From the NCBI RefSeq assembly GCF_024223415.1, contig NZ_CP100500.1: 64,000 bases of DNA. The stretch is one strand, 5' to 3'. Below the pieces are notes generated by a model. The model saw only the letters and a program-made list of their open reading frames with translations, did not search any database and was not told where the DNA came from. The translations under genes were made by a program, and so were the position numbers. Positions 4,668-52,107 of the stretch are shown here, one piece after another. Positions within the stretch are counted from its first letter, which is position 1. Every line of letters starts with the position of its first letter. Source of the stretch: Escherichia coli (lineage in GTDB: Bacteria > Pseudomonadota > Gammaproteobacteria > Enterobacterales > Enterobacteriaceae).

Positions 4668-4958
4668 TTACCAGTATGGTCTGCATTCAGAAGGGACCGA
4701 CAACAACTCAGCCAGCTCCGCCACAAGGCGGTTGGTTTCCAGTAATTTCCGCAGTCTCACCGAAAAATAGCCTTGTGCCACATCGTGATTTTCACAGGCT
4801 TCCCTGCGCGTCAGCCCCAGAACAAAATAATCCCTCAGCGCCAGGATAACCTTTTTACTGTTAACGGGAGAAAGCGCTGCAAGTATTTCAAAATGTGCAT
4901 CTGACATGCTTCCGGGCGTGTCATATATCCCGGCAACACGACTGTGATATATCCCCAC
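4668..4958 (-). CDS. PapB/FocB-family small transcriptional regulator (fimbrial-switch type)
   Basis: PGSMSDAHFEILAAL…VILALRDYFVLGLTRREACENHDVAQGYFSVRLRKL matches the PapB core; long AT-rich region upstream. Confidence 0.6.
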   Translation of the reverse strand: MGIYHSRVAGIYDTPGSMSDAHFEILAALSPVNSKKVILALRDYFVLGLTRREACENHDVAQGYFSVRLRKLLETNRLVAELAELLSVPSECRPYW

Positions 4959-5839
4959 GGATACCCCCTGATTACCGCCTGCCCTTATTCCCCGGGAGAC
5001 TGAGAACAGGCTGAGATATAAGTATATTTATATAATATTATATTTCGGATTATTCGCAGAATACTGAAAAAACCGGTCGGGTCAACCGCAGGAAAACAGA
5101 AAGAGCCTGTAATAACGCATAGAAACGATATTTAAAACCAGAACAACCATCAAAAACAGAACATAAAGTCACAAAAACCGTCAAAAACGACCAGGTACTG
5201 CATTTTTAACACCTTTTTTAAATTTTGGTATCTTTACAAAAAACACCACCTGAAAATCATTTATTTAATTAAATAAAGTAAATTGCTTAGCCTGATAAAT
5301 ATTGTTCTGCAACACTCCGGTTCAGGCAGAATGTATTTTCATGGCTTACCCATTCAGGCGTAAATGCGATATTCCGCACATGACAGAGACCACACAAAGA
5401 AAAACAGGCGCAGACAGCCGGATACAGGATAAATTAACACTTCACAATCCGGCATTATTACGCTACAACATTCACGGGCAACTGCCCTTGTAACGAAAAC
5501 TTCCTTAATTTGGGTATTTGTGTGCCGTACGTCTGTGGTGTACGGCTTTTTTTCATTTTTTTATAATTTCTATAAATAAAGATATAATCAATACGTATAT
5601 ACCGTCGTATAAGATCCTTCTTCACCTTTCATTAAAAAGATCCGGAACAAAACAGACGATGAGATTGTGGTACTACCAGATTTACACCCTTACTCCGGAT
5701 AATTCACAAATCCTGAAATTACGACCTTCCTCCCGTTGCCGGACTGAAACAATATGCAGACACTCTGACGGACATGTCAGCAATGCACTCGCTCTCTGCT
5801 GTACAGGTATTACACCATACTTCACCAGGAGGTCTGTTC

Positions 5840-38543: not shown

Positions 38544-38692
38544 CATTTTATCTGCCTGTACGGCAGTGAACATGGTGGGCGGGTGGAGTATGTTACCAGT
38601 GAATTTCTAAGCTGCCTGTACGGCAGTGAACGTTTGCTGCAACCGCTAGCCAAGACGGTAGGTTTTTCTAAGCTGCCTGTACGGCAGTGAAC
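38544..38692 (-). CRISPR. Orphan type I-F CRISPR mini-array (3 repeats, 2 spacers, no cas genes in window)
   Basis: Two exact copies of TTTCTAAGCTGCCTGTACGGCAGTGAAC (38604-38631, 38665-38692) plus a degenerate copy ending at 38571; spacers of 32-33 bp. Confidence 0.8.
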
Positions 38693-38903: not shown

Positions 38904-41180
38904 TTAATGCGCTGCTTCCGCCTTGTGCTTTTGTGCACTCTGAAATCCGTAAGTCAGCTCATTTTTCTCTTTATCCAGCGCGACGGTGACCTGACCGCCG
39001 TCCACCAGCGAACCAAACAGCAGTTCGTTGGCAAGCGGTTTTTTCAGGTTGTCCTGGATGACACGCGCCATCGGACGAGCGCCCATTGCCCGGTCGTAAC
39101 CTTTCTCGGCCAGCCAGTTACGCGCTTCCTGGCTCACTTCCAGAGAAACACCTTTCTGATCCAGCTGAACCTGCAACTCGACGATGAATTTATCCACCAC
39201 CTGATGGATCACGTCAGTTGACAGATGATCGAACCAGATAATGTTGTCGAGACGGTTACGGAATTCCGGTGTAAAGATCTTCTTGATCTCTTCCATCGCA
39301 TCGGTGCTGTTATCCTGGTGGATAAGACCAATGGATTTGCGCTCAGTTTCCCGTACCCCGGCGTTAGTGGTCATCACCAGTACCACGTTACGGAAGTCCG
39401 CTTTGCGTCCGTTGTTATCGGTCAGCGTACCGTTGTCCATCACCTGCAACAGAATATTGAACACGTCCGGATGCGCTTTCTCGATTTCGTCCAGCAGCAG
39501 CACCGCATGTGGATGCTTGATGACCGCATCAGTCAGCAAACCGCCCTGATCAAAACCAACGTATCCCGGAGGCGCACCAATCAGACGGCTGACGGTATGG
39601 CGTTCCATATACTCGGACATATCAAAGCGCAGAAGCTCAATGCCCAAAGCTTTCGAAAGCTGTACCGTCACCTCTGTTTTCCCGACCCCGGTAGGACCGG
39701 CAAACAGGAACGAACCGACCGGTTTATGTTCGTGACCTAAACCTGCACGCGCCATCTTAATGGCTTCAGTCAGCGCCTCAATGGCTTTATCCTGACCGAA
39801 GACCAGCATTTTCAGGCGATCGCCGAGGTTTTTCAGGGTATCGCGGTCACTCTGAGAAACACTCTTCTCTGGAATGCGTGCAATACGGGCCACCACGGAC
39901 TCAATATCCGCCACATTAACGGTTTTCTTGCGTTTGCTTACCGGCATCAGGCGTGCGCGAGCGCCCGCTTCGTCGATAACATCAATCGCTTTATCCGGCA
40001 GATGACGATCGTTAATGTATTTCACCGCCAGCTCTACCGCCGCACGCACCGCTTTTGCGGTATAACGCACGTCGTGGTGCGCTTCATACTTCGGTTTCAG
40101 GCCATTGATGATTTGAACAGTTTCTTCGATCGACGGTTCAGTAATATCAATTTTCTGGAAGCGACGCGCCAGAGCACGGTCTTTCTCGAAAATGTTGCTG
40201 AACTCCTGATAGGTTGTCGAACCAATTACGCGAATTTTACCGCTGGAGAGCAACGGTTTGATTAGGTTAGCCGCATCGACCTGACCACCAGACGCTGCAC
40301 CCGCACCGATAATGGTGTGGATCTCATCAATAAACAGGATGCTGTTAGTGTCCTGCTCCAGCTGCTTGAGCAACGCTTTAAAACGTTTTTCAAAGTCGCC
40401 GCGATATTTTGTGCCCGCTAACAGAGAACCGATATCGAGAGAGTAAATCGTACAGTCAGCCATCACTTCCGGCACATCGCCCTGAACAATTCGCCAGGCA
40501 AGACCTTCTGCAATCGCGGTTTTACCGACACCAGATTCCCCCACTAGCAGCGGGTTGTTTTTACGGCGACGGCAGAGAACCTGAATAGCACGCTCCAGCT
40601 CCTTCTCACGACCAATCAGTGGGTCGATTCCGCCCACGCGCGCAAGCTGATTCAGGTTCGTCGTGAAATTCTCCATACGTTCCTCCCCACCAGCTTGTTC
40701 TTCGCTGTTTGGCTGGCTGCCAGGATCAGAAGACTGTGTCGGCTCGTCTTTACGCGTGCCATGAGAGATAAAGTTCACCACATCGAGACGGCTGACTTCA
40801 TGTTTACGCAACAGATATGCCGCCTGCGACTCCTGTTCGCTAAAGATAGCGACCAGAACGTTTGCACCGGTAACCTCATTGCGACCGGAGGACTGGACAT
40901 GGAAGACCGCACGTTGCAGTACACGCTGAAAACTCAGCGTCGGCTGTGTGTCGCGCTCCTCTTCACTGGCAGGCAGAACGGGTGTGGTTTGTTCAATAAA
41001 GGCTTCCAGTTCCTGACGGAGCGCAACCAAATCCACAGAACACGCTTCCAGCGCCTCCCGGGCAGATGGGTTACTGAGCAGCGCCAGTAACAAGTGCTCG
41101 ACGGTCATAAACTCATGACGGTGCTCGCGCGCTCTGGCGAAAGCCATATTTAAACTGAGTTCCAGTTCTTGATTGAGCAT
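38904..41180 (-). CDS. clpA: ATP-dependent Clp protease ATP-binding subunit ClpA
   Basis: Matches E. coli ClpA throughout as recalled ([24 protein letters not shown]…); two AAA+ modules. Confidence 0.95.
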
Positions 41181-41210
41181 AGGCACCTCCCCCAATTTTT
41201 ATGCCTGCAT

Positions 41211-41531
41211 TCAGGCTTTTTCTAGCGTACACAGCAATGGATGCTCATTCTCCCTCGCGTACTTGTTCACCATCGCCACTTTGGTTTCTGCAACCTCGGC
41301 GGTAAAGACTCCGCAAATGGCCTTCCCCTGGTAGTGAACAGCGAGCATCAATTGCGTTGCACGTTCTACATCATAAGAAAAGAATTTTTGTAACACGTCA
41401 ATAACAAACTCCATCGGAGTGTAATCATCATTGACTAATATCACTTTATACATAGATGGCGGTTTTAGCGCGTCGCGAACTTTTTCTTCCGCCAGTTGAT
41501 CAAAGTCCAGCCAGTCGTTCGTTTTACCCAT
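41211..41531 (-). CDS. clpS: ClpS adaptor protein
   Basis: 106 aa matching E. coli ClpS ([43 protein letters not shown]…). Confidence 0.95.
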
Positions 41532-41615
41532 TGTCAGTTATCATCTTCGGTTACGGTTATCGGCAGAACGCCCTGCCGCTGACAAGAGCTTATTTGCCTG
41601 ACCAATCTACTCCAC

Positions 41616-41637
41616 ATGATAGATAACTATCATTTAT
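41616..41637. repeat. Left attachment-site direct repeat ATGATAGATAACTATCATTTAT
   Basis: Matches the right repeat at 52086-52107 at 20 of 22 positions. Confidence 0.6.
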
Positions 41638-42554
41638 ATCATTTAGTTAATTAGTCTTTATTTTTCATTATGTTGCAAATAACAAGCCCGTCAAAAACAG
41701 TGATATTAACTACACCATTAACTACACCGCTTCACGAACAATATCGAACAACCGCGAACAAAGATCAACACGCTTTAATCATTATCATTTTCCGGCTATC
41801 CGTCATGAAGCTGGTGGATGATCTGCGTGGTGATTTCCACCATTCAGAGCAGGTGCGGTCATCATGACCATGCCATAACAAAAACCCCATATTCGTGGTT
41901 TTTCTGTGTCGGGGCTATTCTGCTGTTGCCGTGCTGGTGGATATTCTCCGGTATGCGGCTCCCCATATCGGCATCAGGCCCACCAGCGTGAAGCGTTTTT
42001 CATTTTTCGCGGGTATAAAAAATCGATGGGGCGGGCAGTCCTGAAGACGTCAGGGTACAGAGATTTGACCCGCCCCTCCCTGTGCATGAGCACAATAAGT
42101 AACCGAAGGCGGAATTCCGCCCTCGGTACTTACATATGAGAAACGATATTTCTTCCACCGATACCCTTTATTTGGGTATCGCGAGTAAGCCCCAAAATCT
42201 GGGTGTTACTCTTACTACCCAAACTACGGGTAGTTTCCGTAGTTTCATGGTCGAGTTGCAAATCTGCAACTCACCCACCAGCCAGCGCAATGTCGCATTA
42301 TCAGTCCTCAGATGTGAGGGATGTAGCCAGCTTTTCCCCCAGTGGGGATTATCCAGTTACCGACGGTTTAACCGCCTGTACCAGCACAACGAAAGAATTT
42401 GCGGGTAGCTTTAAACTACTCACAACATCCCATCTTACAGGCCGTGCCTTTCTAACTTTTTACAATGCAATAAGTCAGGTAACGCTATGCGTTCCACCGT
42501 GTACACCGCGCCAGTAAAACCCCCGGATTCGTGGTTTTCCTGAATATCAGGAAT

Positions 42555-42929
42555 CTACCGCCGCAACCGTTCCGGCTTCTTCCACTGATAAGTGTTTTTC
42601 GCGCTCTCCCTCCGTTGTTGAGAACGGCGACGGTATGCCAGCAACTCAAGGACTCTGGTTCGTATGTTGCGCATATCCACGCCGTTAAGCTCAATACCAT
42701 CACGGCGCATCACCTCAGCAACAACACACGCGTAATTTTCGGCTATCACGCTGTCCGGCTGCGTGGCCTCCTGTTCGCCAGCCTGCTGGCTGATTCCGGT
42801 AATACTGCGGATTATCCCGAGCGCTTCGGTCTCGGTCATGGTCATGGCCTCCATAGTGATGGCGGGTCCTCCTTGTGGGGTGCCCTGCCACGGGGCGGGA
42901 GCATCGCGGAAAAAGGCTAGTTTTTGCAT
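42555..42929 (-). CDS. Hypothetical protein (PICI accessory end; start uncertain)
   Basis: ORF only; no motif recognised. Confidence 0.35.
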   Translation of the reverse strand: MQKLAFFRDAPAPWQGTPQGGPAITMEAMTMTETEALGIIRSITGISQQAGEQEATQPDSVIAENYACVVAEVMRRDGIELNGVDMRNIRTRVLELLAYRRRSQQRRESAKNTYQWKKPERLRR

Positions 42930-43090
42930 TTTTATTCGTTATCACCACCAATGCAATATATTGATATGACTTGATGTTTTATTTTTCGGTGTCGATTTCG
43001 ATTGTTTTTTGTTCATCACTGACGCATAACGCCCACCAGCGCAACGCTGAAAGCCAGTCAGTAAACTGGCTTCGGTCATTGTGCACTACG

Positions 43091-43618
43091 TTACTTGTCT
43101 TTATCCGGCTGAAACTTATCAGGCACATTTCCGGTAGTTTCCATCAGATAATCGGACAGCATTCGCGGGATGTTTTCATCAAGTTTTGTGCATGCGTTAC
43201 AGGCTCTGACAACTTCTTTTTTCAGGCCATCCAGCATGGCGGGGGTCATCTGTGGGAAGCTCCTTTGCATAGTAAGCGGGAGGCTGTCCATGATTGATGA
43301 AATCTGACTCGCCAGTTTTGAAAGCGCGTACATGCAAAACTCTGTATCAATCACGTCACCGCGATCGCGCTCGTTTTTAAGTTCCTGCGCCTCCGCCTGT
43401 GCTGTCAGTAATCTGATCCTGACTCGTAAAAGTTCATCATCGTCAATCTCGCCTTTGTCGTTTGTAATCTGGCTGATTGCATTGTTAACCCGATTATCTA
43501 TTACACTGGCGACATCATAAAACGTCTCACGGCCCTTACGCTCGACGGGAATCACTCCCCACTTATCGAACGCAGTGGCGCTTACTCGGCAGCTTTTCGC
43601 CATGTTTTTTTTATTCAT
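43091..43618 (-). CDS. Small-terminase (lambda Nu1-like) homologue, candidate packaging-redirecting protein
   Basis: Collinear with lambda Nu1 as recalled (N-terminal HTH region, then …LTAQAEAQELKNERD…DTEFCMYALSKLASQISSIMDSLPLTMQRSFP…). Confidence 0.8.
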   Translation of the reverse strand: MNKKNMAKSCRVSATAFDKWGVIPVERKGRETFYDVASVIDNRVNNAISQITNDKGEIDDDELLRVRIRLLTAQAEAQELKNERDRGDVIDTEFCMYALSKLASQISSIMDSLPLTMQRSFPQMTPAMLDGLKKEVVRACNACTKLDENIPRMLSDYLMETTGNVPDKFQPDKDK

Positions 43619-43699
43619 CAGGTGCGATTTCATCAATACCCCCACTTAATTAATGCTTCAGGTTGGTGTGTTGGTGTTATCTTTCCATTTTTATTCATA

Positions 43700-43840
43700 G
43701 AGATAGAGCGAACAACAAAACCACCACCAACCCGAAAAGGCTCATAAATAGCGAAAATCCGCAAGGTCGACGCCCCGTAACGGGTCCACATGCCGGAAAG
43801 GACCCATAAAAAATAAAGCCGGACTACTCCGGCTTCGTCT
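43700..43840 (-). other. Lambda-type cos site (cosQ-cosN-cosB-like)
   Basis: Minus strand reads GGGTCCTTTCCGG…GTTACGGGGCGTCGACCTTGCGGATTTTCGCTATTTATGA, near-identical to the lambda cos region as recalled. Confidence 0.7.
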
Positions 43841-43858: not shown

Positions 43859-44443
43859 TTATGCTTTCCGTACGCCCGAGGAACTGGCATTTTTCAGAAT
43901 AATATTATGCCCTGCTGGTGGCTTACCGTTATGCTTATTTTCTGCCTTCATGTTTCTGCGCTCCTGCTGTTTTTTCTTCATCTCATCCAGTCGCTTCCCC
44001 GCGTTCAACTGGTGCTCCTGTGTCACCTCCCCGCACGGATGGCCTTTCAGGTCGTAACGCACGCCACCAGCCATCAGGGAACGGTAATATCGCACTGAAC
44101 TGACATAATACGCCAGCGTTGCGCGAAGCGCTCCCTGACCTAATGAAATACCTCTCGCAGTAATATCCTCCATCAGGTCATCAAATATGCCAACCTTAAG
44201 CGGTCTGGGCGATTCCTGGCTGAAAAGTTCAGGCCAGAGCGCGGCAAGGCGTTCAACGCGTCTGATATTTTTTTTCCGGCTCTTTTCTGATTTGCGTTTT
44301 GCTGCCGTCTTCTGTTGTGTTTTCTGCTCGCGGCTCTGCTTTTGCGCTGGTGTGGTTTTATCCGGCTGTTCAGCCTCCTGCGTCTTTTTCTGCGGTGTGC
44401 CGTATATGCCTTTTGGTTTTCGGTTAATGGTCAGCTTTGTCAT
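43859..44443 (-). CDS. ProQ/FinO-domain RNA-binding-like protein
   Basis: Basic Lys-rich N-terminus followed by LAALWPELFS…PLKVGIFDDL… typical of ProQ/FinO domains. Confidence 0.55.
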   Translation of the reverse strand: MTKLTINRKPKGIYGTPQKKTQEAEQPDKTTPAQKQSREQKTQQKTAAKRKSEKSRKKNIRRVERLAALWPELFSQESPRPLKVGIFDDLMEDITARGISLGQGALRATLAYYVSSVRYYRSLMAGGVRYDLKGHPCGEVTQEHQLNAGKRLDEMKKKQQERRNMKAENKHNGKPPAGHNIILKNASSSGVRKA

Positions 44444-44522
44444 GTTCTCCCCCTTTGTGCTGTTCCACCAGCGGCATCTGCTACCCCGTGTCGCTCCCGC
44501 TGGTGTCGTGTTTCCCCGCCTG

Positions 44523-44843
44523 TTAATAACCGTCATCATTTACGTTATCAGGGTAATCACGCCATATTTCATCAGTAAGCGACGGTAGCCCCATCTGTTG
44601 TATTGTCCTGTCTGCGGCCCTTCTGACTGCGTGAACATCATAACGGTTTTCAGGTATCGGGCGCTTTGCCTTCCTGATACATTCCCTTGCTCTCATTGCC
44701 GCAAGTTCTCTGTGCCTGTCTTCCTGAAGAGTAATCATCACATCCTGCCACCTTCTGGCAGCCCGTCGCCACAGTCCCCTGCTCTCGAGTTCTTCTGCTG
44801 TCGCGTCGCTTATTGTCCGGTTCTTCGGTGTGCTGTTGTTCAT
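44523..44843 (-). CDS. PerC-family transcriptional activator-like protein
   Basis: …AEELESRGLWRRAARRWQDVM… PerC-like signature. Confidence 0.55.
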   Translation of the reverse strand: MNNSTPKNRTISDATAEELESRGLWRRAARRWQDVMITLQEDRHRELAAMRARECIRKAKRPIPENRYDVHAVRRAADRTIQQMGLPSLTDEIWRDYPDNVNDDGY

Positions 44844-45569: not shown

Positions 45570-45805
45570 ACCTCCTCTACCTCTCTACACAATCATCTTT
45601 CAGGTCAGTAATGGCGCGGCTTTCAGCGGGGTAGAGGGCTTTTTTGGCCCTCTACCTGCCATCTACCACCCCCTCACAAATGCCCTGAATTATGGTAGAG
45701 GGTGTAGAGGGCTTTTAAGTACCTTCTACCTGCCATCTACCCAATCTATCAACATGAAATATATGTAATTATTTTCTTAAGGTAGAAGGGGTAGAGGGCT
45801 TTTGT
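45570..45805. repeat. Iteron cluster, candidate replication origin of the island
   Basis: GTAGAGGGCTTTT x3 (45631, 45704, 45790) and CT(C/T)CTACCTGCCATCTACC x2 (45651, 45724), directly downstream of the replication gene. Confidence 0.6.
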
Positions 45806-50680: not shown

Positions 50681-51919
50681 TCAAGAATTTTGGGGGTAAA
50701 TTCGCGGGGTCATAACAACGATTTTTTCATCATTGTTCTGGAGAAGCTCGAGACGGTCTACCCATAGATTAAGAGCGTCACGCTTTGCATCGAGATAACG
50801 GGAGTGGTTATAGACGCGTTGCATTCCTGGCATCTGGTGGGCAGTAAGCTGTTCAACAATATGCGGATCCACGCCTAAATCGTTCAGCATGGTTGTAAAT
50901 GTGTGCCGGATGTCGTGCAACGACCAGGGGGCTTGATTAATGCGTCTGTGTGCCGTTCTTCCGTACTCTGCTACGGATGATTGCCCTTTCAGTTCTCCAA
51001 GCAATAAGCCCGTGTGCCTGTTCTGCTCCACCAGCTTCATGACGAACGGCAAGATCGCTTCCGGTATTGGCCTGAATATTGCTACCTTCGTTTTGCTGTG
51101 TTCTTTCGGCACAGTCCAGAGCATTTCTTTAAAATCCCATTCCCGAACCTCGGAGCGTCTTAGCTCAGTGGTACGGCATCCGAAGACAATCAGAAGGCGA
51201 ATTAAAGCGCTGTAGTACGGCGGGAAAATTTTTTCATCCAGTGCGCGGAGTAGCTCGCCAAGCTCCTTGTTTGTTAGCACTCGCTCGCTTATTTCTGCTT
51301 TTTTTCCCACATCACCTACGACCATATCATCAAGAACGTTACTGACGGCGTAGCGACGTTTACGGCAGTACTTAAGCGCCTGTTTGCATACCTGCAACAA
51401 AAAGCCGGCTGATACCGGATTACGCTTAGCAAGCTGGTCAAAACAGGCCAGCCAGTGGCGTAGCTCGCATTTATCCAGCGGCATAGCACCAATCTGGCTG
51501 ATTATGTGCTTATTGATACGGCTTTTCAGTGATTCGTGGTCAGTGCGCTTTTCCTTCGCATACGACTCAAGCCAGTAAGTGAGCGCGTCCTTAACCGTCA
51601 CGGGGGCTAACGCTTCCTGCACTGTGTGATTAAGCTCATGGCGTGGATTTTTCCCCTCCGCCAGCCAGGCGCGACACTGTGCCGCTTTTTCCCTGGCTGC
51701 TTTCAGGCTCAGATCGGGATAGTTGCCCAGTCTCAGGCGTTCCGGTGATACCTGCCTGCCAGTTCCGGCCCTGTAAGTGAAATACCAGGTTAACAGGCCG
51801 CTGGTGGAATGTCTTACGCTAAGATTGCCACCGTCATTAAAAAAGGCGTTTTTTGTGGTTGGTGATCCGCTTAATTTTCGTAAAAGAGTGTCGCTAAGTC
51901 TATGAATTGCGCTGCTCAT
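50681..51919 (-). CDS. int: Tyrosine-type site-specific integrase
   Basis: C-terminal catalytic region with …LHDIRHTFTTML… and …VYNHSRYLD…; hairpin 50644-50676 downstream. Confidence 0.9.
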   Translation of the reverse strand: MSSAIHRLSDTLLRKLSGSPTTKNAFFNDGGNLSVRHSTSGLLTWYFTYRAGTGRQVSPERLRLGNYPDLSLKAAREKAAQCRAWLAEGKNPRHELNHTVQEALAPVTVKDALTYWLESYAKEKRTDHESLKSRINKHIISQIGAMPLDKCELRHWLACFDQLAKRNPVSAGFLLQVCKQALKYCRKRRYAVSNVLDDMVVGDVGKKAEISERVLTNKELGELLRALDEKIFPPYYSALIRLLIVFGCRTTELRRSEVREWDFKEMLWTVPKEHSKTKVAIFRPIPEAILPFVMKLVEQNRHTGLLLGELKGQSSVAEYGRTAHRRINQAPWSLHDIRHTFTTMLNDLGVDPHIVEQLTAHQMPGMQRVYNHSRYLDAKRDALNLWVDRLELLQNNDEKIVVMTPRIYPQNS

Positions 51920-52085
51920 GTTTCGCGTTTCCGGTCATCAAAATTAACTACACCATTGACTACACCGTGCATCGTACAAGGGCAAACCGTGACGAACAAG
52001 AGCGAACAAGTAAAACAAAATTTTCCTTTATAATCATAGCGATGAATGCACACAAAACACTACCACGAACACCCGCGAACACTAG

Positions 52086-52107
52086 ATGATAAATAACTAT
52101 CATCTAT
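52086..52107. repeat. Right attachment-site direct repeat ATGATAAATAACTATCATCTAT
   Basis: Pairs with 41616-41637. Confidence 0.6.

Follow-up and report, generated by a model that had tools for sequence, protein, structure and literature searches.

A phage-type cos site in the integrase-distal non-coding arm of a phage-inducible chromosomal island inserted at clpS in Escherichia coli

The open reading frame (ORF)-poor segment at positions 41881-42538 of a 64,000-nucleotide stretch of Escherichia coli DNA (contig NZ_CP100500.1, assembly GCF_024223415.1; hereafter, the window) belongs to a phage satellite. Judged from its genes and ends, the host element is of the phage-inducible chromosomal island (PICI) type and sits between clpS and yljB/cspD, and the segment falls wholly within the 917-bp integrase-distal non-coding arm of that island (41638-42554). 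The best explanation, which we hold with fairly high confidence from sequence comparison, is that this arm has at its core a cos site of the type carried by phages SfI, SfV and phiP27. An earlier note on this DNA had described the segment as lying at the left end of an island, poor in ORFs and bracketed by two near-identical hairpins, and had proposed a structured non-coding RNA (ncRNA) locus or a small inserted module. Its location was correct, the true junction being the attachment (att) core at 41609-41637, as located by alignment with the empty site of K-12. The scarcity of ORFs was likewise borne out: only short overlapping ones occur, and RefSeq annotates nothing between clpS and the gene for a 94-amino-acid (aa) protein (hyp94) in the identical locus of strain Br_112_kylling. 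What the note missed was the main identity of the segment, which by its sequence is a phage-type cos site.

Evidence for the cos came from BLAST searches against phages, in which 41998-42080 matched SfII, ST64B, vB_EcoM-720R4 and SKA5 at 92-95% identity and phiP27 at 83%. The phage counterpart of this 83-bp block is the short gap directly upstream of terS, the gene for the small terminase subunit (TerS), as the gene tables of SfII, 720R4 and phiP27 confirm; in phiP27 and 720R4 the same gap lies downstream of an HNH endonuclease gene, and the terS of phiP27 is of the P27 family (Pfam). The cohesive end of SfI was found experimentally to be 10 nt long, 5'-TGCCCGCCCC-3' (PMC3636060). Its exact reverse complement, GGGGCGGGCA, is present at 42028-42037, and the 10-mer GGGGCGGGCG labelled cos-site in the phiP27 record aligns with the same window positions. 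An inverted repeat that the earlier note had placed at about 42021-42068 does exist, although 7-8 nt away, with arms GGGGCGGG (42028-42035) and CCCGCCCC (42069-42076); since the reverse complement of the SfI end coincides exactly with 42028-42037, the left arm of this repeat is the cohesive-end sequence itself. All columns invariant among the five aligned cos sequences are retained in the island copy, and a cos hidden Markov model located the site beside a conserved stretch, here termed block C, in ~30 satellite loci among those compared (designated by L numbers). The phage arrangement, with cos between an HNH gene and a P27-family terS, was not found in the island, where neither gene is present. 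Missing HNH and P27-terS neighbours are expected for a satellite copy, and the block was therefore classed as a homolog of the phage cos that is carried by a satellite. By its identity, the 83-bp block is a cos region of SfI/SfV/phiP27 type that would presumably still function as one, and it appears to have been copied from, or to be shared with, the HK97-like HNH-dependent cos phages of the SfI/SfV/SfII/ST64B/phiP27 group.

The satellite nature of the surrounding DNA is evident from its boundaries and gene content. To the left of the island lie clpA (38904-41195) and clpS (41211-41531), both on the minus strand. The order in K-12 is clpS, yljB, cspD, and in the window cspD first appears at ~52326; alignment with the K-12 empty site (clpS-yljB) showed that chromosomal identity ends at 41637 and restarts at 52079, which defines an insert of 10.4 kb. 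The att core at both ends reads ATGATA-ATAACTATCAT-TAT, with the crossover inside ATAACTATCAT. Repeats at 41705-41729 and 51943-51967 were considered as att sites and rejected, as the K-12 alignment identifies them as internal arm repeats. They represent a tandem TTAACTACACC repeat of the attP P' arm and its mirrored copy adjoining int; this tandem and the nearby CGAACAA repeats are candidate, and probable, arm-type sites of the integrase, which has an Arm-DNA-bind_3 domain. The integrase itself (412 aa, tyrosine type, Pfam Phage_integrase plus Arm-DNA-bind_3) sits at one island end. The island also encodes an AlpA homolog (Pfam, 3.8e-16), a primase/replicase (Pfam D5_N/DUF5906/Pox_D5) whose gene is adjoined by iterons (45628-45803), and a single-stranded DNA-binding protein (SSB). 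The locus in Br_112_kylling, 100% identical, carries the same RefSeq annotation, without lysis or tail genes, and its genes are only regulatory, replication, SSB, PerC, ProQ, TerS and hypothetical ones. The sequence features of a PICI are thus found: an integrase placed at the end, flanking att sites, an insert of the ~10-15 kb class, AlpA, primase with iterons, and neither lysis or tail genes nor a full structural module. In sister islands, genes for major capsid and head-decoration proteins were observed where this island has its ProQ/FinO and PerC genes.

A second cos, of lambda type, lies directly upstream of the gene for the island's own Nu1-like TerS. There, 11 of the 12 bases of the lambda cosN dodecamer are matched and the flanks are lambda-like (43741-43778). 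The pair of SfI-type and lambda-type cos sites recurs in 16 loci among those compared, and, by analogy with how the phages are arranged, both sites are predicted to direct packaging leftwards in window coordinates. In the literature searched, no description was found of an SfI/P27-type cos paired with a lambda-type cos on one PICI.

PICIs and Staphylococcus aureus pathogenicity islands (SaPIs) are known to carry helper cos sites, and EcCICFT073 has two functional ones, both of lambda/phi80 type, which work with Rpp, a protein that reprogrammes the helper TerS (PMC6092414, PMC6739421). Like EcCICFT073 and EcCIED1a (cos1, cos2; Fillol-Salom 2018, 2019), the present element is an int-alpA-pri/rep island with a phage-type cos in the non-coding end of its packaging module and with two cos sites per island, and cutting would be expected from a helper terminase. 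Unlike in EcCICFT073, one cos here is of lambda type and stands beside the Nu1-like TerS gene of the island, while the other is of the unrelated, HNH-dependent SfI/SfV/phiP27 type. No RppC relative is apparent either: when their sequences were searched against the PDB, neither the TerS-like nor the 94-aa protein gave a match, and in particular none to Rpp(C) or gpNu1. The 94-aa protein belongs to phrog_1561, a family of 957 protein clusters with no Pfam family and no PDB relative. Compared with the cos of SfI, SfV, SfII, ST64B and phiP27, the island site shares 83 bp at 83-95% identity, the 10-mer of SfI and the same GGGGCGGG/CCCGCCCC dyad. Unlike those phages, where cos lies between the HNH gene and terS, the island has it in the interval that separates block C from the attP arm, and no gene for HNH, P27 TerS or the large terminase subunit (TerL) lies nearby. 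SaPIbov5 and P4 offer a further parallel, in that each is a satellite carrying a helper cos so that the helper terminase packages it, and the helpers of SaPIbov5 are likewise HNH-dependent cos phages; however, hosts and sequences differ and no capsid-size redirection genes are evident here, so this likeness is mechanistic and not one of homology.

Capsid-forming PICIs (cf-PICIs) of the EcCIEDL933 type have both block C and the last gene, hyp94, in common with this island. The hyp94 gene occurs in classical PICIs and cf-PICIs alike and always stands beside the distal non-coding arm. The cf-PICIs encode capsid, portal, protease, HNH, P27-type TerS and TerL proteins, as L007 and L013 do; all of these genes are missing from the present island, which is therefore not assigned to that class. 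One cf-PICI subtype (L013, inserted at fis) also shares a diverged cos and the GC-rich hairpin described below, at the same distal position. In L013 the diverged cos block (4916-5009) has GTGTGGTGAGCGG and not GATGGGGCGGGCA in its cut-site region, which would fit a private cos for its own HNH, TerS and TerL.

Two further features of the arm bear on packaging. A GC palindrome between cos and block C was the only terminator-like site in the arm in a terminator scan. On the minus strand it folds at -26.4 kcal/mol (z -8.5), with a stem of 11 pairs, eight of them GC; the tail that follows it on that strand, TACTTATTGT, has only 5 T in 8, and the plus-strand tail is poorer. L011, L012 and L013 retain the stem in altered sequence. 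The hairpin is probably the terminator of the leftward terS-hyp94 operon. Chi octamers form the other feature: the 10.4-kb island has 19, whereas the remaining 53.6 kb of the window has 7, with none in 1-39001. Other PICI and cf-PICI loci have ~1 Chi per kb and far fewer in their flanks; a literature search on Chi enrichment in PICIs gave nothing specific. RecBCD recognises Chi when coming from the 3' side of the octamer. Around cos, the plus strand carries Chi at 41933 and 41810, and the minus strand carries it at 42275 (42275-42282) and 43033. If RecBCD entered at a cos cut, it would reach a Chi in the orientation it recognises after no more than ~90 bp on the left and ~240 bp on the right.

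Taken as a packaging system, the arm would operate as follows. A helper phage of the SfI/SfV/SfII/ST64B/phiP27 group would induce the island and supply HNH, TerS and TerL. The island would excise, circularise at att and replicate into concatemers, which the helper terminase would cut at GGGGCGGGCA (42028-42037) to leave 10-nt cohesive ends; packaging would then run leftwards from cos, past att and int and across the remainder of the island, to the next cos. By a second route, lambda-like helpers would use the lambda-type cos together with the island's own Nu1-like TerS. The GC hairpin would end the leftward packaging operon, and the Chi sites would limit damage by RecBCD. The addition of an SfI-type cos to a lambda-type one makes the predicted helper range wider than that of the lambda/phi80 paradigm of EcCICFT073.

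Several observations weigh against this explanation of the arm, or restrict it. Genes for P27-family TerS, TerL and HNH are all missing from the island, and use of this cos would therefore be wholly dependent on a helper. The cos sequence was found only once in the Br_112_kylling genome, at megablast sensitivity, so no resident helper prophage carries this cos there. Sister islands L009 and L010 are without the cos cassette, which is therefore dispensable for the island family. The U-tract of the GC hairpin is poor, and Chi octamers occur on both strands throughout the island (9 plus, 10 minus), so their favourable orientation around cos may be coincidence. The SfI-type cos is accordingly an accessory, helper-range-determining module and not a core part of the family.

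The motif copies by which the earlier note had delimited the segment proved to be a genuine repeat. The sequence AAAACCCCATATTCGTGGTTTT at 41881-41902 has a one-mismatch copy at 42517-42538, where no matches were expected (100 shuffles of the window); taken as a 27-nt direct repeat (41880-41906 and 42516-42542), the two show 85% identity at a distance of 636 bp. The hairpins that they could form are weak (-4.8 to -10.5 kcal/mol, z -1.6 to -2.8). Copy 2 is a gene scrap, because the piece to which it belongs translates as residues 52-72 of HK620 hkbK with a frameshift. This KilA-N piece spans 59 nt, ~20 codons with the frameshift, and contains no ORF with an intact domain; in the phage gene, the codons of EKNHESVVF by chance make up the palindrome AAAAACCAC...GTGGTTTTT. 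Copy 1 is probably a scrap of the same kind. In the window the KilA-N fragment is joined to the 3' flank of the last island gene, and L238 likewise has it directly beside its last gene.

Pairwise comparison with sister islands, a check that the earlier note had suggested, gave the layout of the arm and revealed mosaic modules that come and go between islands. The real indel junctions are 41988/42282 and 42303/42533, corresponding to a ~295-bp cassette and a 231-bp piece; the idea of small inserted modules therefore holds, whereas that of a unit bracketed by the motif copies does not. In L009 and L010, GCCCACCAGCC runs directly into AGCGCAATTTTGCGC at the junction, and the cassette of the window has CCCACCAGC repeats on its two sides, both of them with a Chi on the minus strand. 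The 231-bp piece includes 37 nt of an Stx-phage ant gene (42392-42428, plus strand), and L238 has a different spacer in its place. It is scarcely credible that 41881-42538 is a small mobile insertion whose ends, be they direct repeats or terminal hairpins, are the motif copies. Their similarity and spacing, with no such matches expected by chance, would suit such an element, but L009 and L010 have copy 1 and none of the DNA up to copy 2, and in L002 and L008 copy 1 is accompanied by cos and block C but not by copy 2. Furthermore, copy 2 lies within the 59-nt KilA-N fragment, the actual junctions fall elsewhere, and no target-site duplications are present at the motif copies.

Recombination debris from phage KilA-N and Ant genes accounts best for the 231-bp piece and the two motif copies, taken by themselves. 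We consider it quite unlikely that the segment as a whole is non-functional debris, comprising recombination scars between satellite and helper phages and including a dead cos copy. Such an origin would account for the frameshifted KilA-N and Ant pieces on opposite strands in the 231-bp insertion, for the highly mosaic arm and for cassette boundaries at Chi-containing repeats. However, all phage-invariant cos columns are kept and the cos recurs in many islands. Block C with its flanking hairpin is present in 750 genomes (448 at a coverage of at least 80%), across satellites with different integrases and sites, and identity of 92-100% kept beside unalignable flanks is not expected of debris. 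An 18-nt perfect inverted match (CGTCATGAAGCTGGTGGA) between 41801-41818 and 51027-51044, which contains a Chi, was also observed and links the arm with the integrase gene. The idea that block A (41770-41987) is a remnant integrase gene has in its favour only this match and a weak blastx match to the integrase N-terminus (E 0.019, two stops). An AATATCA-type repeat present in the spacers of relatives is not enriched in the window.

Block C is the most conserved part of the arm. The 750 genomes that carry it make up ~14% of the 5426 complete E. coli genomes, it was also found in 77 IMG/VR contigs, and no annotated feature lies beneath it among the matches listed. It occupies the integrase-distal end of islands with differing integrases and insertion sites, always downstream of a hyp94 homolog. 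Its hosts are classical PICIs at clpS and tRNA-Ile, helper-embedded PICIs in prophage late genes, and cf-PICIs at tqsA and fis; block C is thus common to classical, helper-embedded and capsid-forming PICIs, independent of integrase, terminase or cos type. In cf-PICIs of the L007 type it stands at the end of the island and the sole cos-like match is ~2.7 kb off, in the canonical gap upstream of terS. Searches for more distant copies were negative: a 16-nt block C pattern gave only chance matches in unrelated phyla among genome contigs, nhmmer searches of all loci compared found no more diverged copies, and a hyp94-based locus search in IMG/VR found only relatives of at least 76% identity, hence no distant homologs for covariation analysis. 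In some IMG/VR loci (L084, L099, L120 and L141), two tandem units of cos-like sequence plus block C were observed ~435 bp apart, the second cos being more diverged and the second block C lacking the ATG.

We scrutinized block C and its flanking hairpins for an RNA-level function. The 206 nt at 42095-42300 fold at -90.4 kcal/mol on the minus strand (z -9.1) and -81.8 kcal/mol on the plus strand (z -8.7), far below shuffled sequences in both cases. Perfect 8-nt inverted repeats number seven in the segment, where shuffling gives 0.56 on average, and the segment is therefore truly rich in dyad symmetry, whereas one such repeat alone is not beyond chance, at least one being found in 36% of segment shuffles. 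A structured ncRNA formed by the GC hairpin, block C and the second hairpin (~42095-42300) can be proposed tentatively, either as a 3' untranslated region or small RNA ending at the minus-strand terminator or as a plus-strand RNA; it would possibly be a ligand of ProQ/FinO-type chaperones, and it is compatible with a cos in the neighbouring DNA. Besides the folding and the dyads, this proposal is favoured by loops that vary while arms are kept, with a few compensatory changes (GATCCCC...GGGGATC in L120; C-G to U-A in L125 and L098), by the terminator-like hairpin at the minus-strand 3' end, by the ProQ/FinO protein that the island encodes, and by conservation above that of the adjoining protein gene (94% versus 84%, window versus L007). 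On the other hand, the RNAalifold covariation term was 0.01, with most pairs invariant. One-sided changes to G-U and A-C pairs are about equal (8 versus 7 pairs), so neither strand is favoured. Four-fold variation (ACG/ACC/ACA/ACT) breaks hairpin 2, no promoter-like site emerged in the scan, and palindromes fold equally well as DNA. No Rfam match was obtained: a scan of the whole window with Rfam 15 gathering thresholds found only two CRISPR-DR4 repeats elsewhere, and at E<=10 the region 41500-43200 gave only chance-level snoRNA or viral matches. A literature search on PICI small RNAs gave nothing specific. The structured RNA locus of the earlier note is favoured by folding on both strands, but not by Rfam or covariation, and an ORF remains open through the region.

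That ORF raises the alternative that block C encodes a small protein missed by annotation. The gene would start at ATG 42136 on the plus strand and be convergent with the other island genes, with a product that comprises MRNDISSTDTLYLGIASKPQNLGVTLTTQTTGSFRSFMVELQICNSP... and a variable tail. We regard this as rather doubtful. Nearly all of ~45 variants, including some with unrelated 5' parts (MVATD..., MVALMIC...), keep an ATG and an uninterrupted frame, two independent 9-nt deletions are both in frame, and a hairpin follows the conserved part in every type. The core also shows a synonymous excess (14/33, P=0.01), of which the ACG/ACC/ACA/ACT site is an example, but an antisense frame with the same wobble positions scores better (17/30, P<0.001), which leaves the coding signal ambiguous. 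Furthermore, dN/dS is ~0.65 (hand count, window versus L011), no Shine-Dalgarno sequence precedes ATG 42136, C-termini are unrelated between types, and the second copies in two-copy loci are without the ATG. Block C ORFs of both strands had no Pfam or PHROG match, only 20 sporadic E. coli gene calls were found among 5.8 billion proteins, and the AlphaFold model of the plus-strand ORF was uninformative (mean pLDDT 49). On the minus strand, the commonest arrangement (L002 4758-4905 and relatives) has the hyp94 stop followed by 49 in-frame open codons covering block C, and in L096 (IMG/VR) the stop is missing, so that hyp94 and the block C stretch are fused into one ORF.

Block C is a real, conserved and heavily dyad-symmetric element; what the RNA and ORF readings leave over would fall to a site acting at the level of DNA or to a sequence that has spread recently. 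Block C and its flanking hairpins (~42095-42300) might, with some reserve, be an undescribed, highly structured functional element, likeliest an RNA or a cis element acting at the single-strand level.

The features of the arm and the adjoining island genes are collected in Table 1. Outside the island, two CRISPR-DR4 repeats (type I-F, Rfam) were observed just past clpA (38604-38692). In other strains clpA is followed by tRNA-Ser (serW), infA and aat, and the left 39 kb of the window appears to hold different content. ARAGORN found no tRNA or tmRNA anywhere in the window; this ruled out a tRNA end suggested by the look of "...GCAACTCACCCACCA", where CCACCAGC is a Chi site. The insertion parts clpS from its earlier upstream DNA on the yljB side, and a sigma-70-like promoter match (TTGACG, 16-nt spacer, CATAAT; 10/12 positions) was observed in the P' arm at 41694-41667 on the minus strand, facing clpS-clpA.

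Table 1. Features of the integrase-distal arm and neighbouring island genes, in window coordinates
Feature	Position	Strand	Evidence or remark
attL core	41609-41637		Direct repeat and K-12 empty-site alignment; partner attR 52079-52107
attP P' arm	41638 to ~41770		Tandem TTAACTACACC repeat (41705-41729) and CGAACAA repeats
Block A	~41770-41987		Contains motif copy 1
Chi octamers GCTGGTGG left of cos	41810-41817, 41933-41940, 41980-41987	+, +, -	
Motif copy 1, AAAAACCCCATATTCGTGGTTTTTCTG	41880-41906		Minus strand reads QKNHEYGVF; related islands keep it within their block A
Cassette of cos, GC hairpin and block C, ~295 bp	41988-42282		Absent from L009/L010
Phage-type cos region	41998-42080	+	92-95% identity to phage DNA just upstream of terS
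GC palindrome ACCGAAGGCGGAATTCCGCCCTCGGT	42102-42127	-	Terminator-like, weak U-tract
Block C	42136-42282		Dyads 42160-42180, 42215-42233, 42253-42272; plus-strand ORF from ATG 42136
Degenerate second hairpin	42284-42300	+	AACGCAATTTTGCGTT in most relatives; stem sequence varies, pairing mostly kept
231-bp insertion relative to L002/L008	42303-42533		Contains Stx-phage ant piece
KilA-N gene fragment, frameshifted	42483-42541	-	HK620 hkbK residues 52-72, EKNHESVVFTERGVHGGTY; contains motif copy 2 (42516-42542)
Last island gene, 94-aa protein (hyp94)	42555-42839	-	phrog_1561; also last gene of related cf-PICIs
Nu1-like small terminase (terS)	43091-43645	-	Pfam Phage_Nu1 4e-23; phrog_57
Second cos, lambda-type, ACGGGGCGTCGACCTTGCGGATTTTCGCTATTTATGAG	43741-43778	-	Directly upstream of island Nu1-like terS
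ProQ/FinO-domain protein and PerC-family regulator genes	43859-44539 and 44523-44843	-	Pfam ProQ/FinO 2e-26, PerC 1e-26

Carriage of a helper cos by a satellite is already established for P4, SaPIbov5 and E. coli PICIs; the present island adds a case in which a classical E. coli PICI has a cos of SfI/P27 type together with one of lambda type. Real potential for novelty is confined to block C. At ~150-200 nt, unannotated and outside Rfam, it would, if functional, be a component shared by PICIs and cf-PICIs that is not in current models of these satellites. More generally, ORF-poor island ends can be labelled with attP arm, cos, terminator and Chi cluster instead of being left blank. The helper range of a PICI is set largely by its packaging site, and PICIs spread virulence and defence genes at high frequency; the pairing of SfI/P27-type and lambda-type cos sites may let one satellite be packaged by two unrelated families of helper phage.

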